A stretch of DNA of 28,916 bases from contig JAEOTS010000072.1 of assembly GCA_016839745.1 (NCBI GenBank), positions 1-28,916 of the forward strand. The letters run 5' to 3'. Source of the stretch: Promethearchaeota archaeon. GTDB taxonomy: Archaea; Asgardarchaeota; Lokiarchaeia; Sigyniarchaeales; SOKP01. Of the stretch, positions 3,083-10,766 are shown piece by piece. Below the pieces are notes generated by a model, which searched no databases, had not been told where the DNA came from, and saw only the letters and a program-made list of their open reading frames with translations. A program made the position numbers and the translations under genes. Each line of letters begins with the position of its first letter. The first letter of the stretch is position 1.

Positions 3083-3490
3083 ATGAAGGTGTTACTCATA
3101 AAACAAAAAAGATCTTTAGAAATAAAAAAATTATTATGTACATGTAATAGTTGCTCAAATTCAAATGCTCATTTTGAGAACTTACTAGAATTGGGTAAAA
3201 AGCTAGAAGAGAATGAAAATTTGGATGTGATTGAAAGATTTACATCTGCAATTTCATCCAAGGAGCGATTAATCATCATCAATGCTTTAAAGGAACAAGA
3301 CAGATGTGTATGCGAATTAGAAGCTATATTAAATAAGTCCCAATCTACAATTTCTCATCATTTAAGGAAGCTAGTTACAGCCGGTATAATACAAGGATAT
3401 AAAAAGCAAAAATTTACTTATTATCACTTGTTTAAGGAAGAAATAAAGCAATACTTAGAAATTTTTAATCAAGTATTAACTGTTAATTAG
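3083..3490 (+). CDS. arsR: ArsR/SmtB family metalloid-sensing transcriptional repressor
   Basis: RLIII..L, CVCEL alpha3 metal site and SQSTISHHLRKL..AGII HTH. Divergent from acr3; extra N-terminal CTCNSC. Confidence 0.92.
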   Translation: MKVLLIKQKRSLEIKKLLCTCNSCSNSNAHFENLLELGKKLEENENLDVIERFTSAISSKERLIIINALKEQDRCVCELEAILNKSQSTISHHLRKLVTAGIIQGYKKQKFTYYHLFKEEIKQYLEIFNQVLTVN

Positions 3491-3650: not shown

Positions 3651-3905
3651 ATGCCGAAACCCGTTCCTGATGATGAGGAAAGTATGAGCGAATGTCGGAA
3701 ATTCTGTGGTCCTTGTCCTTCGTTCAAACCTAATCAATTAAACGAATTTGAGCCACATGCGCTTTTTTGTTCGCGTGGAAAAACTGAAAAACCGATGTCC
3801 GAAGTTAAAAATAATGGTTGTAGTTGCTTTGGTTGTGGATTATTTCCAAAGTACGAACTAGAAGGCGGATTTTTCTGTATGCATGGTACTGGCGGAAAAA
3901 AATAA
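3651..3905 (+). CDS. Small Cys-rich putative metal-binding protein (DUF2769-like)
   Basis: 8 Cys in 84 aa: CxxxCxxCPSF...LFCxxGK...GCxCxxC...FFCxxG, resembling the archaeal DUF2769 pattern. Confidence 0.7.
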   Translation: MPKPVPDDEESMSECRKFCGPCPSFKPNQLNEFEPHALFCSRGKTEKPMSEVKNNGCSCFGCGLFPKYELEGGFFCMHGTGGKK

Positions 3906-3925: not shown

Positions 3926-3938
3926 CTTTTTTTTATTT
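3926..3938 (+). terminator. Probable archaeal oligo-T terminator
   Basis: T-run about 20 nt after the stop of the Cys-rich gene. Confidence 0.4.
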
Positions 3939-4136: not shown

Positions 4137-5417
4137 ATGATATACTCTATGGAAGATATGGATAACGATATAGAATTCTCTAAATACTATCGGGTAATTA
4201 CACCAAATGAAATTAACATTGATAGGGAGGAGATTTTTTATAGAGATAAGTATAACGATATCATTAGTTATTTGAAGATTATGTTAACCAACCACGAGGA
4301 TTCGATCACTCAGAGTTATAATAAATTTATTCAGCCAAAAGGTGCTATTCTAATCAATATTAAGTCTGGAACGGATATTGATGATTATTTAAAGCTAATT
4401 TCCAAAAATTATTATCTAAATTTTTATGAACTAAATCAGGAGGAAATCATAAAGGCGCCTGAGGTGTTTATTAACAACTTTACATCTATTCTACAAAGTT
4501 TAATACAAGTTAAGGAAACAAATTCAGATGAAATTGGTGAGGAAACTCAACCAACTGAAGATCAACTAAAAGAAAATAGAATAAAAGGAATACTATTAAT
4601 TAATCAAGAGAATTTTACTAACATCAAATTAAAAAAAAGGAGCTTATTAGAGTATTTTGTAATATCTTTTAAAAATAAAAAGGAAATATTGAAAAATGGG
4701 CTAATTTTAATCTGGATTAACAATGACATTAAAGAGATCGAAGTAAATTCAAGATCAATTTTTGAAGTCTTTGATCTGTTTATAAAAATTCCCCTTTTAG
4801 ATAACATCGAGAGAGAGACGATTTTCAGGAACTTCTCAGAAAAGAATCCGAAAATCGTATTTGACATTAAAACACTAGTAGACTTCACAGTTAATTGGGA
4901 AATAAAGGATATAAATCAATTGCTGAAAGTGGGTATCTTTAAACATTTTCTTAAATCCGAATTAAATGATTCAAGTAATGAAATTACAGATGGATTGATT
5001 GACTTAATAGAATCGGGAGAATTCATTCCTTCCATTTCTCATGAGGAGGTAAAATTGGATTTTTCGAATGATAAAGTAACTGAAAATCAAAACTCATTAA
5101 ATATGAGATTCATGAAGGGAGGAAAAACGGGGATAACAGTTAATGGATCGTCTGAAGTTCTTAATCTAATAAAGCAAGAAAGGTTCTCCGAATTTATGCT
5201 CAACCAATTATATGAAAACGCAGTTTCTAAGAATTATAGTGAGCTCTTACTCATTATTGATAAATTAAATAAGCAGGAACTATTAGAAGAAAATGATAGA
5301 AAACTACTAGCAAAATACGCTTTTATTCTAAACGATAGTCCAAAAATGGCTCAAATTAATTTAGAAAAAGCAAAAAAACGTATAGATAATTTAAAGCGAG
5401 CTTTTGGAAAAAAATAA
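4137..5417 (+). CDS. Degenerate (Walker A/B-inactivated) classic-clade AAA+ fold protein
   Basis: QPKGAILINIKSGTDIDDYLKLIS aligns by eye with PKGhLLxGPPGTGKTLLAKAhA. ILLINQE sits at Walker B and LILIWINN at sensor 1. FDLFIKIPLLDNIERETIF resembles FDRxIxIPLPDxxxRxxIL, and DIKTLVDFTVNWEIKDINQL resembles the lid DLxxLAxxTxGxxGADIxxL. Confidence 0.65.
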   Translation: MIYSMEDMDNDIEFSKYYRVITPNEINIDREEIFYRDKYNDIISYLKIMLTNHEDSITQSYNKFIQPKGAILINIKSGTDIDDYLKLISKNYYLNFYELNQEEIIKAPEVFINNFTSILQSLIQVKETNSDEIGEETQPTEDQLKENRIKGILLINQENFTNIKLKKRSLLEYFVISFKNKKEILKNGLILIWINNDIKEIEVNSRSIFEVFDLFIKIPLLDNIERETIFRNFSEKNPKIVFDIKTLVDFTVNWEIKDINQLLKVGIFKHFLKSELNDSSNEITDGLIDLIESGEFIPSISHEEVKLDFSNDKVTENQNSLNMRFMKGGKTGITVNGSSEVLNLIKQERFSEFMLNQLYENAVSKNYSELLLIIDKLNKQELLEENDRKLLAKYAFILNDSPKMAQINLEKAKKRIDNLKRAFGKK

Positions 5418-5435
5418 TATAATGGGTGACAATGA

Positions 5436-8400
5436 ACGGCTACTTCCTCTAAAAGAAAGGTAAAAGAAATAATTGAAAAAAAACCTAACGAGAATGGTAT
5501 ATTTCTTCGCAAAGTTATATTAGAAAACTTTTTATCATTTCAAAGAGACGAAGTAGATTTTTCAATTCAAGAAAACCAAGATCCTCCTCGTTTTATTTTA
5601 ATCATTGGACCAAACTGGAGCGGGAAAACATCAATTTTTCAGGCTATTAAATTTGCTTTAGGGAGTAATGAAAGAGACGAACGTTATAAAAAGTGGTCTG
5701 ATTTTATTAGAAACGGTCAAGCTCATGCTATGGTTGAACTTCATATTCAGTACCATGGTGAAATCCTTAAAGTAAGAAGAACTGTTATAAGAGGAAAATC
5801 TCCTTTTTTCGAAATTCAACTTAACCATGACCAGAATTTTAAAAAAGTTCATGTGAATGAAATTCAAAAACTTATTACTGAGTTAGAAATTAATCCCGAC
5901 AATCAATTCGCGTTTGTAAGTCAAGGTAAAATCGATGCAATTAAGAATTTAAAACCTATCGAGTTATGTTCATTTTTAGAAGAAGGTATTGGGCTTAAAG
6001 GTCTCAGAGAGGAGATACTTCAACAAAAAAAAGGTGTTTTATCTTTAGATATAGAATTTCAATCACTAGTAACCAGAAAAAATACATTAAATTTTAACTT
6101 GGATATATTAGCACCAAAGTTAGAACGGCTTAATGAGAAAAAGAAATTATTAGATATCAGAAATAAATATACTGATGAATTGTTATGGGCTAATAAGGAT
6201 GTTCTACAAAAAGATATTGAGAAATTGGAGTTATCCTTCAAGGAGAGCCAAAACAAAATAAACTCTATAACCAAGGAAACTGGAAAATACCGAAGTTTAG
6301 TTAAAGAAAAAGAAAGAATAATTATTGAAATAGATAACAACCTTAATAATGCATCAAAAAAAACGGGAGAATTAGAATATAAAAAAAAAGAACTAGTAGA
6401 AAAAATTGATGCTTGGCAGAAAGAAAAAATAATAGCAAAACAAGAATTGGATGAGTTATCAGCAAAAGTCTCGGAAATAGAAAAGGTTGTAGATAAATTT
6501 AACAGCCAAAAGCAAAACTTGGAAAATGAAATCAAAATAGTTAACAGAAAGAAACAATCTGTAAAGAGCGACATTGACAAATCGATTAAAGAACAAAATG
6601 ATCTTATAAGAATGATCAAAGAGAATGAAGCTTTCTTAGAAAAATATAACAATTTAACTAATGAAAAAGAAGGATATTTAAGAACTATCCAAGAGAATGA
6701 AAGTAAAATTGAAAACACCAATAAAGATATCAACGACATATTTCAAAGTTTGATGGACATTGACCACAAACTAGAAAAAAATAAATGGTTCTTAGAAAAT
6801 CCTTCAAACGATTTATTGAAGCAATTAGATACTGATCTAAAGAAAGTTACCGTAAACTTACTAAATTTTGGAGCTGAAATCGAGCAGTTAGAATACAACA
6901 AATCGAAAAAGATGCAAAAGTTTAAAGTACTACAAACAGCATTAAGAGAACGAAAAATCGTTTTGTCACCCAATATTAATGTTCTCAAAGAAGAAATTAA
7001 GAAAAGAGAATTAGAGGATCGCGTTAAAGGTCCAATAATCGAGTATTTAAAATATGACGATGAGTTAAGCTACGCAATTGAATCGGTTTTAGGAGAGCGG
7101 CTACTTAATAGTTTTATTGCGAGCGATTGGGACACATTAAACTTATTAGAGAGATTAAAAAAGAAATATAATGCTTATTGTAATATCTATATTCCAAAGA
7201 AGGTAAATGTTACTCCCTTTCCAAAAATTTCAGCTGCAGGAGTAATAGGTTATTTAGCAGAATTAATTAAAATTATTGATGACGATGTAAATGTTCAAAA
7301 AGTTATTTATTCGAAGATTAAAAATTGTCTTGTTGTTAAAGATAATCTCTCTGCAAAAGAGCTTTATAAAACAAGAGCTTTCAAGGGTAAGTGTGTGACT
7401 CTACAAGGTAAACAGATAATATCGTATAAGTATGTATATGAGAGTCCTCATATAAAACGACTTAAAGGTTTATTAAGCGCAGGGACTCAAAAGGAACAAT
7501 CTGAACTGGTAGAAAAAGAAATTAAATCGTTAAATGATAAAATATTAGAATTAAAAGTGAATCAAGCAAAATTTGAAAAGCTTCAAGGTGAGATTTTTAG
7601 AAAAAAAGAATCATTTACTGACCTTTTGTTCAATTTCAAGCACAAAGAAAGGTTAACTTCAAAAAAAAATCAATTATATAATCAGATTTATTCATTAGAA
7701 CAAAAAAATGGAGAAATTAAAGAAGACATTAAAGACCTCACGAAAAAAATCAAAGATTTTGAGTCTCAAAAAGAGCCTGAATTCTTCGATTGGAACAATA
7801 GAGTAAAGGAAATTCCAAACGAACTAAACAATTTAAACAATGAACTAAAAAAATGGGATAAAAAATTAAATGATAATCTAGAATCATTAAAGGAAATCAA
7901 TGATAATATAAATTTTAATGAAAACAATTTAAGCATAGTTAAACTAAATTACGATGCGAAAAAAACTGATTTCCAGAAGTCAGATAAAAAGGCATTTGAA
8001 ATTTATAGAAAATTAGAAAATTTGGAAGATGAGATTCTATCAATTAAGACAAAAATCTCTAAATTGCAGGACCGAAAAGTAATAACACAGAAAGAGAAGC
8101 GCGAGATAGACCAAGCTCATATTCAAGTAAAACTAAGCTTAGAGCAAGAAATTTTTAAGCAATCTTCAATAAAACATGAATTAGGGATGAAGAAGGAAGA
8201 TCTAAACCGCATTTTATCTGAAATTGGGCAATATATCGGAGAAGAAAAAATAACAGTTCGCCCAATAGAAGATATTAATAGAGACGTACTAAAAATTGAT
8301 AAAGAACTTTTAAATTATTTAGATGTCGACGATTCACTTTTAATAGAAAAAGAACAGATGATTACAGGTTTAAAAGAAATTACAAAAAATCAGAAAGAAT

Positions 8401-8927
8401 TAGAAAGAGACATAAAGGCAGCTATTAAAACAGAAAAAAAATTGGAAACCACATATTTTGATAAGTTTCAAATAGTTCTTAAGGAATTAAATTCTAAAAT
8501 CAACCAAAAATTTAACTCCGCAAATATTAAAGCTTATTGTACTCTTGAGATAATAGGAAATTTTGAAGAATTGGGTATAGATATCAAGGCTGCGATCTCA
8601 AAAGACCAGTTAAAATCTTGTACAGCCTTAAGTGGTGGTCAAATTTCAATGATTTCAATTAGTTTAATCTTATCTCTTCAAGAAATTAAACCTTCGCCAT
8701 TATGTATGTTTGATGAAGCCGGAATGTTTTTGGACGATAAGAATTCAGAAGCTTCGTATCATATGATAAAATCTACTTTAGAAAACAACTCTATTCAATT
8801 ATTAATGTTTCTTCCAAAATCATCAAATGCGTTATATTCACTCGCAGACAAGTTAATTGGAGTTGCAAGAGTTGGCAAAAAAGAAGTATCTACCATATTT
8901 AAACCTAAAATTTTAAAAGAAAGATAA
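5436..8927 (+). CDS. smc: SMC family ATPase, non-canonical/SMC5/6-like (~1163 aa)
   Basis: The frame is open from 5436 and encodes LRKVILENFLSF and Walker A GPNWSGKT (5607-5630) upstream of the ORF-track start at 5730. It has Q-loop FVSQG, long coiled coils, hinge VKGPIIEYL...AIESVLG, signature LSGGQ and Walker B/D-loop CMFDEAGMFLD. The start codon is uncertain. Confidence 0.92.
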   Translation, partial: TATSSKRKVKEIIEKKPNENGIFLRKVILENFLSFQRDEVDFSIQENQDPPRFILIIGPNWSGKTSIFQAIKFALGSNERDERYKKWSDFIRNGQAHAMVELHIQYHGEILKVRRTVIRGKSPFFEIQLNHDQNFKKVHVNEIQKLITELEINPDNQFAFVSQGKIDAIKNLKPIELCSFLEEGIGLKGLREEILQQKKGVLSLDIEFQSLVTRKNTLNFNLDILAPKLERLNEKKKLLDIRNKYTDELLWANKDVLQKDIEKLELSFKESQNKINSITKETGKYRSLVKEKERIIIEIDNNLNNASKKTGELEYKKKELVEKIDAWQKEKIIAKQELDELSAKVSEIEKVVDKFNSQKQNLENEIKIVNRKKQSVKSDIDKSIKEQNDLIRMIKENEAFLEKYNNLTNEKEGYLRTIQENESKIENTNKDINDIFQSLMDIDHKLEKNKWFLENPSNDLLKQLDTDLKKVTVNLLNFGAEIEQLEYNKSKKMQKFKVLQTALRERKIVLSPNINVLKEEIKKRELEDRVKGPIIEYLKYDDELSYAIESVLGERLLNSFIASDWDTLNLLERLKKKYNAYCNIYIPKKVNVTPFPKISAAGVIGYLAELIKIIDDDVNVQKVIYSKIKNCLVVKDNLSAKELYKTRAFKGKCVTLQGKQIISYKYVYESPHIKRLKGLLSAGTQKEQSELVEKEIKSLNDKILELKVNQAKFEKLQGEIFRKKESFTDLLFNFKHKERLTSKKNQLYNQIYSLEQKNGEIKEDIKDLTKKIKDFESQKEPEFFDWNNRVKEIPNELNNLNNELKKWDKKLNDNLESLKEINDNINFNENNLSIVKLNYDAKKTDFQKSDKKAFEIYRKLENLEDEILSIKTKISKLQDRKVITQKEKREIDQAHIQVKLSLEQEIFKQSSIKHELGMKKEDLNRILSEIGQYIGEEKITVRPIEDINRDVLKIDKELLNYLDVDDSLLIEKEQMITGLKEITKNQKELERDIKAAIKTEKKLETTYFDKFQIVLKELNSKINQKFNSANIKAYCTLEIIGNFEELGIDIKAAISKDQLKSCTALSGGQISMISISLILSLQEIKPSPLCMFDEAGMFLDDKNSEASYHMIKSTLENNSIQLLMFLPKSSNALYSLADKLIGVARVGKKEVSTIFKPKILKER

Positions 8928-10130: not shown

Positions 10131-10766
10131 TTAACGATTAACTGTAATGCCTAATATCATTTCTGCAACGTTGTTATTATATTCTTCCACTTCAGCAAAA
10201 TCCTTTACAATTTCACCACAAGTTATGAAATAGTCAATAACTGAAATTTTCCTTTGATTGAAGAAGGCATCAATTTTATTTTTTATTTCTTCCAATTTCT
10301 TATCCTTGTCCCCTTCAATTAAATCGATTTTATTTATGCAAACATATATTTTATCGGGAAAAAAGCGAACATCGTTGAAAAATTCAAACTGTCGTTTTAA
10401 TTCACGATCTAAAGAAACTACTGCTATGATTTGTGTAGCTATTCTGCTTATAGTAATAATTCCCATTTTTACTACCGCTCTTCGTCGGTCCCCCCCAGGT
10501 GCAAAGATAGTGTGAGCTTTTCCGGTACTATCTTCTCTAAATACAACTCGATTTGGATGAATTGTTTTAGTTTCTTTTTGGTTAAGAGAATCTTCTTTAT
10601 CTCCTCCAGGAACCGTTGCTTCACCGGAAAAATCAGTTTTAACAACGGTACATTTTTTACCTCCTTTTACCTTTTCTATGTCTCCTACTTTTAGATATCT
10701 TACAAAAAGACGGAGAATGCTCGTTTTACCAGCGCTTATATCTCCAAGTAATCCAATATTCACCAT
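10131..10766 (-). CDS. Small Ras-superfamily GTPase, MglA/Rup-like
   Basis: G1 GDISAGKT, G2 Thr (TKTIHP), G3 region FAPGG, G4 NKID, G5-like TCG. Confidence 0.85.
   Translation of the reverse strand: MVNIGLLGDISAGKTSILRLFVRYLKVGDIEKVKGGKKCTVVKTDFSGEATVPGGDKEDSLNQKETKTIHPNRVVFREDSTGKAHTIFAPGGDRRRAVVKMGIITISRIATQIIAVVSLDRELKRQFEFFNDVRFFPDKIYVCINKIDLIEGDKDKKLEEIKNKIDAFFNQRKISVIDYFITCGEIVKDFAEVEEYNNNVAEMILGITVNR

Follow-up and report, generated by a model that had tools for sequence, protein, structure and literature searches.

SMC complexes (SMC stands for structural maintenance of chromosomes) are built from SMC dimers, a kleisin and KITE or HAWK subunits. To our knowledge, none of the partners described, whether ScpAB, MukEF, JetABD, Nse1-6, Scc2/4, the HAWKs or ParB, is of the AAA type, and no characterised SMC complex has an AAA-type subunit. 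We have analysed a stretch of 28,916 nucleotides (nt) from a Promethearchaeota archaeon (assembly GCA_016839745.1, contig JAEOTS010000072.1, positions 1 to 28,916 of the forward strand; hereafter the window), in which a gene for an AAA-like protein (Table 1) lies directly upstream of genes for a divergent SMC protein, a kleisin-like protein and a KITE protein. What is new is this fourth, AAA-derived gene in an SMC-kleisin-KITE operon, along with its synteny across lineages, its co-distribution with the operon and a series of forms that runs from live to dead. Two or three SMC-kleisin-KITE operons have been described in Asgard and TACK archaea (van Hooff et al., bioRxiv 10.1101/2024.01.07.573240; Yoshinaga and Inagaki, PMC8665677); an AAA gene beside them is mentioned in neither report, and a full-text search of the literature outside subscription journals found no description of an AAA partner for Asgard SMC proteins.

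The nearest described relatives of the window protein are the classical AAA proteins (p97/VAT/Cdc48 D2, Vps4/CdvC, Msp1 and FtsH), with which it shares the alpha/beta plus lid fold, the order of the motifs and homology at the level of profiles; as in Vps4, its second-region-of-homology segment is two residues shorter than that of Cdc48. Unlike all of these, it lacks the Walker A Lys/Thr and the Walker B Asp-Glu, has neither arginine fingers nor an aromatic pore loop, and carries an extra C-terminal domain of three helices. In the bacterial clamp loader, the delta and delta-prime subunits, which have AAA+ folds without ATP binding or hydrolysis and act as wrench and stator of a machine for opening a DNA-encircling ring, are a precedent for dead AAA+ modules as ring-handling adaptors; they belong, however, to the clamp-loader clade, work in a pentamer with active subunits and serve sliding clamps, not SMC rings. 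The archaeal herA-mre11-rad50-nurA operon likewise encodes an SMC-like ATPase, Rad50, together with a ring ATPase, HerA, but HerA is an active FtsK/HerA-type translocase and not an AAA protein, and Rad50 has no kleisin or KITE. In terms of role, the analogy is with Nse5/Nse6 of eukaryotic Smc5/6, a non-catalytic pair that is described as binding the SMC heads or arms, restraining the ATPase and promoting loading (PMC8327961). The likeness is to the role that we propose below and to nothing else, since Nse5/Nse6 is an alpha-solenoid of unrelated fold and sequence, and no homology is claimed.

Results

The product of the gene is a classical-AAA-derived protein, in which an AAA alpha/beta subdomain is followed by a helical lid. 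This homology is visible only via a family profile or by fold comparison, because Pfam and NCBIfam miss the single protein: taken alone, it has no match in Pfam (E values up to 0.1) or NCBIfam, and phmmer against the PDB returned a chance match only (E 0.046). A profile of 28 family members (alignment A1), on the other hand, matches VAT/p97/Cdc48 chains with E values of 1e-9 to 1e-7, the alignment extending from the Walker B region to the lid, and CdvC/Vps4 at 1e-5; moreover, the orthologs of two other genome families (f31 and f30) themselves exceed the PF00004 threshold (35-50 bits vs a cut-off of 21.2). The AlphaFold2 (AF2) model, with a mean predicted local distance difference test (pLDDT) score of 76.8, consists of an alpha/beta core, the lid, a disordered stretch at residues 302-347 and C-terminal helices at 352-423, and its best Foldseek matches in the PDB are p97 D2, FtsH, Msp1 and Vps4 (E about 1e-8, probability 1.00). 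An initial annotation of this DNA had read the frame as an AAA+ protein with decayed catalytic motifs, an intact lid, a linker and a helical C-terminal domain, and model, fold search and alignment all bear it out: the motifs that it quoted (PKG, NIKSGTDI and LLINQE) are where it placed them, the alignment holds no arginine finger, the lid keeps its conserved residues (Table 1), and the disorder and the terminal helices correspond to the linker and the last domain. Homology to known SMC accessory factors was not found for the window protein in Pfam, NCBIfam or PADLOC; the only homology found is to AAA ATPases.

The state of the ATP site was read from an alignment with live AAA paralogs of the same genome and with the SMC-linked AAAs described below. 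Walker A is KSGTDIDD in the window protein vs GPPGCGKT in the live paralogs, and no member of the clade of dead forms has the Walker A Lys; Walker B is ILLINQ vs IIF(F/I)DE (IIFIDE). The arginine-finger segment IFEVFD aligns with WRRFD and RPGR(I/F)D, and NSRSIFEVFDLFIKIP (residues 204-219) has no Arg at either finger position of the live AAAs. The aromatic-hydrophobic-Gly of pore loop 1, at the K(Y/F/W)xG position, is not kept, and is already gone in the Freyarchaeum and G127 forms that retain a P-loop. N196 aligns with the sensor-1 Asn of ATN, in a column that is variable across the family (for example, Y in L057). Judged from these motifs, the window protein cannot bind or hydrolyse ATP in the normal manner, and would be a pseudo-AAA rather than a functional member of the family; nor can it, by the same comparison, be a conventional ATPase, or a polypeptide translocase, since it has neither pore loop nor ATP site. 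By itself it probably forms no hexameric ring. The frame is nevertheless intact and single-copy in more than 200 genomes, and orthologs whose identity falls from 87% to about 20% retain the invariant residues; on this pattern of conservation, the protein is under purifying selection.

Conservation is concentrated at the C-terminal end. Of the 20 columns of A1 that are invariant or nearly so, 13 lie within residues 348-426, where the mean column identity over 19 divergent orthologs (alignment A2) is 56%. Modelled alone, the domain of about 80 amino acids (aa) folds as a three-helix unit with a pLDDT of 92.4. It has no significant match in the PDB by sequence (best E 0.13) and none by fold, the best E value being 1.7 with Foldseek and the best Z 4.9 in an all-against-representatives structural search (VIA). 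An identity as an MIT-like three-helix bundle was considered and rejected, none being present among the PDB, Foldseek or VIA matches. Much of the alpha/beta core is eroded in the shortest orthologs (L074 and L075, with 271-315 aa), whereas their C-terminal domain is kept and their lid still matches PF17862; since these two elements outlast the core, the comparison points to the lid plus the C-terminal domain as the working part of the protein.

The position of the gene is conserved well beyond Lokiarchaeia, as was found when its order was compared in 30 relatives, ten of them close and twenty spread over the genera, families and classes of the phylum. The AAA-like gene is directly upstream of the SMC gene in 29/29 of the sampled loci that reach downstream DNA (the remaining contig, L070, ends at the AAA-like gene, shows nothing downstream and is left out of the count), and kleisin and KITE genes follow wherever tblastn detects them in these 29 loci. 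Three further lineages (G310, G114 and G005) have the same order, with starts and stops overlapping or abutting, which brings upstream adjacency to SMC-kleisin-KITE to 32/32 relatives with downstream DNA, in at least seven Asgard families. It persists where the SMC protein is only 24-30% identical to that of the window and all other neighbours are gone. The distance between the AAA-like and SMC genes is between -4 and about 25 nt, or the genes overlap, an arrangement suggestive of a tight coupling of the two genes that is probably translational.

The gene and the operon also share their distribution. Two profiles, one for the C-terminal domain, chosen because the full-length profile cross-matches ordinary AAA proteins, and one for the KITE of the operon (A3), were run against 400 genomes of the phylum, and genomes with a match were counted. 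In f1, the genome family of the window, the C-terminal domain was found in 121/134 genomes and the KITE in 120/134. The two counts are equal in f2 (1/1), f3 (14/14), f4 (4/4), f10 (1/1), f20 (3/5) and f30 (1/1), and close in f31 and two further families taken together (66/89 for the C-terminal domain, 68/89 for the KITE); both are zero in f13 (0/31), f15 (0/12), f16 (0/22), f18 (0/12) and f19 (0/19). The exception is f21, in which the KITE is present in 6/6 genomes and the C-terminal profile matches in 1/6. Absences of a single gene in f1 fall mostly in different, fragmented genomes. Five f1 genomes have neither the AAA-like gene nor the KITE. No SMC paralog was found in 4/5 of these, and the remaining one has an SMC gene that begins at a contig edge. 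The joint absence of all three genes includes G174, which is 98% complete, and G188, which is a single contig. The pattern suggests that the AAA-like gene and the operon are inherited and lost as one unit.

Other lineages have AAA genes with intact sites at this position. One of these, of 459 aa, overlaps the SMC start by 4 nt in the complete genome G117 (f21). Its product (P0208), which is WXG40903.1, an 'ATP-binding protein' of Candidatus Freyarchaeum deiterrae, matches PF00004 (E 4.6e-21) and the AAA lid, has an intact P-loop (GRSGTGKT), a Walker B of IDNFD and one remaining Arg, and is conserved at 76-81% identity in five other f21 genomes; it aligns to the profile of the dead family over 294 columns, including the C-terminal domain common to both (hhalign probability 96.7%). 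In G069 (f16), a 301-aa AAA that keeps every catalytic motif (GPPGTGKT, IDEFD, ATN and RRFD) overlaps the SMC start by 1 nt. In G127 (f6; the window's class, another order), a 559-aa AAA with GPPGNGKT and LLIENV is followed by SMC, a kleisin-size gene and an ScpB-type KITE. The f31 orthologs, of about 357 aa, read GPPGTDFE; in a language-model look-up, Thorarchaeota is the commonest phylum of the nearest AAA-annotated cluster, whose representative likewise has 357 aa, and f31 is probably Thorarchaeia. From G069 through Freyarchaeum, G127 and f31 to the window, Walker A is thus GPPGTGKT, GRSGTGKT, GPPGNGKT, GPPGTDFE and SGTDIDDY, Walker B is DE, DN, EN, DR/EQ and NQ, and the arginine fingers are RR, TR, SR, none and none. 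Across these lineages the ATP site, as read from the alignment, decays stepwise with the operon position kept.

A quick maximum-likelihood tree was calculated from 45 AAA modules, including housekeeping paralogs (Cdc48 D1/D2, PAN-like and Vps4-like) from G000, G069 and G127. It separates 12 SMC-linked AAAs and 2 relatives, the intact forms of Freyarchaeum, G069 and G127 being on the same side as the window protein, from 31 Cdc48-, PAN- and Vps4-like paralogs, and places the window protein in a subfamily apart from these (Shimodaira-Hasegawa-like approximate likelihood-ratio support, SH-aLRT, of 97); in the same tree the dead forms are a clade, with a support of 96. Constrained monophyly of the 12 was not rejected (p value of the approximately unbiased test, p-AU, 0.65) and was 6.4 log-likelihood units better than the free search. 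The 'Cdc48/PAN-like' label of the initial annotation is imprecise, as the tree sets the SMC-linked AAAs apart.

Some features of the Freyarchaeia and G127 loci are recorded here. The Freyarchaeum SMC protein (L072:10070-12577) has 835 aa, vs 1067-1173 aa elsewhere, and keeps heads and hinge, so that its coiled-coil arms must be much shorter. In two Freyarchaeia genomes (L072 4832-8350, from G117, and L080), the AAA-SMC operon is closely preceded by a gene for a ThiF E1-like protein, accompanied by a 246-aa protein with weak M48/SprT-like and RING-finger matches; a ThiF gene is also near the G127 operon (L078 11259-12083). These neighbours may hint at ubiquitin-like machinery.

Table 1. Features of the AAA-like gene and its operon in the window
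Feature	Position	Strand	Basis or remark
T8 tract after the preceding DUF2769 gene	3927..3934	+	candidate archaeal terminator
AAA-like open reading frame	4137..5417	+	426 aa from ATG 4137, no internal stops; stop TAA 5415-5417
N-terminal helical region (aa 1-60) before the AAA core	4137..4316	+	AF2 secondary structure
Degenerate AAA alpha/beta subdomain (aa about 61-218)	4317..4790	+	profile, AF2 model, alignment
PKG (aa 67-69)	4335-4343	+	sequence
Walker A relic NIKSGTDI (aa 74-81), replacing GxxGxGKT	4356-4379	+	sequence
Low-confidence acidic insert (aa 127-146) in the alpha/beta subdomain			AF2 model
Walker B relic LLINQE (aa 153-158), replacing hhhhDE	4593-4610	+	sequence
Sensor-1 region LILIWINN	4701-4724	+	sequence
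AAA lid subdomain (aa about 219-295)	4791..5021	+	R226 and W254 invariant, D258 nearly so; orthologs match PF17862 AAA_lid_3
Disordered linker (aa about 296-347)	5022..5177	+	pLDDT <50 at 302-347; poorly conserved, variable length
Family-specific three-helix C-terminal domain (aa 348-426)	5178..5414	+	conservation; pLDDT of the domain modelled alone
Basic KAKKRID motif in the C-terminal domain	5367-5387	+	sequence
18-nt spacer, AAA-like stop to SMC frame	5418..5435	+	Shine-Dalgarno-like GGTGA present, T-tract absent
Divergent SMC paralog, 1163-aa frame (Walker A, hinge, C-terminal head)	5436..8927	+	Pfam, NCBIfam
Kleisin-like gene, 215 aa	8930..9577	+	position and conserved synteny only; 2-nt gap after SMC
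KITE gene, 178 aa, divergent ScpB-like tandem winged helix	9570..10106	+	overlaps the kleisin gene by 8 nt

The window contig belongs to a Lokiarchaeial (Promethearchaeota) metagenome-assembled genome (MAG) of 3.5 Mb with a contamination rating of 5.8%. The AAA-like frame stands as the initial annotation drew it, but its start does not: the true start is probably ATG 4149, because M5, encoded there, is invariant in the family alignment and the record's own gene call has 422 aa, the length that this start gives. The T8 tract that precedes the gene is likely to be an archaeal terminator, and the AAA-like gene would therefore head its own transcription unit; scans for sigma-70 promoters and hairpin terminators are uninformative here, the host being an archaeon. 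No run of five or more T occurs within 5065-5528, a span that takes in the AAA-like stop and the opening of the SMC frame, in agreement with the 18-nt distance free of a T-tract that had been noted before. The flanking genes in the window are an ArsR-type helix-turn-helix gene (3083-3490), a DUF2769 gene (3651-3905) and, on the opposite strand, a GTPase-like gene (10131-10766); they are kept as neighbours within f1 and not outside it.

The SMC protein matches SMC_N (E 5.6e-17) and SMC_hinge (2.2e-6) above the Pfam cut-offs, and reaches 175-180 bits against the SMC equivalog models, for which cut-offs of 567-729 bits apply, a shortfall that marks it as divergent; its N-terminal head matches Smc5 chains, among others (E 6.7e-11). 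No ATG, GTG or TTG precedes its Walker A in frame, and the first codon after the in-frame TGA is ACG (5436), with the GGTGA 6-7 nt upstream. Among the relatives L011-L020, L014 has ATG at the homologous position and the other nine have ACG. Comparison of these starts favours a conserved ACG start, or re-initiation, rather than a sequencing error, and the ACG together with the GGTGA would be consistent with weak initiation or with re-initiation after the AAA-like stop. The gene at the kleisin position has no match in Pfam. Among the KITE orthologs, 3/14 match PF04079 SMC_ScpB (best E 1.1e-6), and no match to Nse1 or MAGE was found for the KITE, which by these matches resembles a distant ScpB and not Nse1 or Nse3. 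Elsewhere in the same MAG (C75:2900-3400, minus strand), the KITE profile of the operon has another match that is nearly as good (E 1.1e-65) and is probably a strain duplicate or contamination; the AAA-like gene, unlike this KITE match, is single-copy in the host MAG.

The same genome has a canonical SMC operon on contig C47, with a Pyrococcus Smc match of E 1e-119 and an ScpB gene, and the SMC of the window is its second, non-canonical, divergent copy. With this status, and with matches to Smc5 chains among others, the window operon may be of the type that the literature calls SMC5/6-related. The canonical SMC gene is itself preceded by a gene of 397 aa (L071:5042-6235, plus strand, C47) with no Pfam match. 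It was rejected as a paralog of the AAA-like gene (hhalign probability 0.1%), and resembles a divergent Orc1/Cdc6 AAA+ protein (language-model score 0.98-0.99; PDB 1w5s, E 3.4e-5; Walker A GIQGIGKK). Possibly, both SMC operons of the genome are headed by a divergent AAA+ gene.

The AAA-like family comprises more than 560 proteins at 90% clustering and 87 representatives at 50% clustering. Its records are labelled 'hypothetical protein' where named and come mostly from Lokiarchaeota/Promethearchaeota MAGs, and some distant representatives (P0158, P0159, P0171 and P0190) have 500-620 aa. A member that is 63% identical, P0113, carries the NCBI label 'Candidatus Nanopelagicaceae bacterium', and two 'Actinomycetota' clusters are among the nearest in the language-model look-up; these are probably mis-binned MAG contigs.

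Discussion

We think it probable, with some reserve, that the AAA-like protein is a non-catalytic accessory subunit or regulator of the SMC complex, which docks via its lid and C-terminal domain and descends from an ATP-driven partner. We favour this because the family-level distributions of the gene and of the KITE match, because the genes are jointly absent from two genomes, and because AAAs with intact ATP sites are found in the same operon position. Synteny, co-distribution and these intact AAAs also lend support to the initial annotation, which had put the protein forward as a candidate SMC accessory subunit, and from them we infer a physical association with the SMC complex. In such a scheme, the AAA-like gene would be the first of a four-gene unit (AAA-like, SMC, kleisin and KITE), and its product would bind the SMC-kleisin-KITE complex through the lid and the C-terminal domain, to act as a non-catalytic regulator or adaptor, for example in ring gating or loading, or in tuning the SMC ATPase. 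Its ancestor would have been an ATP-dependent remodeler or switch serving the same complex, of a kind still extant in other Asgard lineages. The data do not tell a loader, a gate-keeper and an ATPase modulator apart.

Several observations weigh against this proposal. Related genomes are not independent, and the match of the two distributions, which overstates the support that it gives, is to be taken as a pattern and not as a statistic. In f1 the whole neighbourhood is kept, including the ArsR, DUF2769 and GTPase-like genes, so that adjacency within this family is in part plain vertical inheritance. Longer fused forms were sought and none was found, which is weak evidence. The family's C-terminal domain is not detected in the intact AAAs of G069 and G127, and their orthology to the window protein thus derives from operon position and the tree alone; these comparisons give good support to orthology in the case of the Freyarchaeum form, and make it no more than plausible in the other two. 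The tree itself is fragile, the dead forms being long branches of odd amino-acid composition and the method a quick one. Moreover, an intact AAA on the SMC-linked side of the tree, that of G043, is followed by metallo-beta-lactamase and hydantoinase genes, and in another genome with an AAA gene on this side, G079, the contig ends inside the gene. Finally, since the KITE of G127 is clearly ScpB-like, more than one SMC paralog may have a link to an AAA.

The protein could be a factor of the SMC pathway rather than a stable subunit, such as an assembly chaperone or a bridge that recruits an active AAA (Cdc48) or ubiquitin-like machinery. Its descent from classical AAA proteins, which oligomerise, would suit such a role, as would the ThiF gene that adjoins the operon in Freyarchaeia and G127 and the RING plus M48/SprT-like gene of Freyarchaeia. 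In the window, however, a Pfam scan detected no ThiF or RING gene near the operon, and the arginine fingers and the nucleotide site, the usual interface between AAA subunits, are gone. Contact with Cdc48 is unsupported by the present analysis: for the link to Cdc48/proteasome-type machinery that the initial annotation had suggested nothing was found, and the genes just named, beside the operon in other lineages, are the sole hint of a ubiquitin-type connection. We regard a role of this kind as unlikely, though deserving of some weight. We give less to the idea that regulation or history is behind the co-transcription of the gene with smc and that its function lies elsewhere, for instance in cell division or in Vps4-like membrane remodelling. 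Operon neighbours are not always complex partners, and some related intact AAAs (G043) are not beside an SMC gene; yet the adjacency is kept where SMC identity is lowest and every other neighbour is different, the stop of one gene and the start of the next overlap or are within about 25 nt, and the distribution at family level tracks that of the KITE, with the genes jointly missing from two good genomes, all of which makes coincidental linkage improbable.

A role of the four genes in defence against foreign DNA, as an SMC-based system akin to Wadjet or Lamassu with an IetA-like AAA component, is suggested by two intact relatives, P0221 (L076:6136-7041, minus strand) and P0208, which match the PADLOC IetA models with E values of 4.5e-59 and 2.9e-32, and by weak matches of the SMC protein to the LmuB and JetC models. 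IetA is, however, among the few classical-AAA models in the PADLOC library, and the match may reflect only that; the window AAA-like protein has no match to the IetA models, or to any other in PADLOC, nor do the kleisin and the KITE, and the operon has no nuclease such as JetD or LmuA. In addition, the module occurs in a single copy, tracks taxonomy and is found in most f1 genomes, which is the pattern of a housekeeping function and not of a patchy island, and a part in defence seems very unlikely indeed. Hardly any credence can be given to the possibility that the gene is a decaying remnant without function. All its catalytic motifs are lost and Pfam and NCBIfam are blind to the protein, but the frame is full-length and uninterrupted in so many genomes, the invariant residues are kept over the whole range of identity, and the C-terminal domain folds confidently (pLDDT 92).

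In any event, in the archaea that are closest to eukaryotes the second SMC operon is firmly coupled to an AAA-derived gene, and this operon may be of the type related to SMC5/6 in the literature. The natural series, in which ATP sites range from fully active to completely dead, makes the need for a dedicated remodeler or loader testable, and lets one ask what remains of the job of such a remodeler or loader once its ATPase activity is lost. It is conceivable, though we put this forward tentatively and it may well prove wrong, that Asgard archaea have a four-component SMC machine with a dedicated classical-AAA protein for handling the SMC ring, an active ATPase or ATP switch in Freyarchaeia and some others and fossilised as a non-catalytic subunit in Lokiarchaeia and the probable Thorarchaeia. 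If so, the AAA protein, whose gene in some lineages has those of an E1-like enzyme and a RING/SprT-like protein beside it, would represent among prokaryotes a forerunner of the AAA/ubiquitin-type control that acts on eukaryotic SMC5/6-type complexes.

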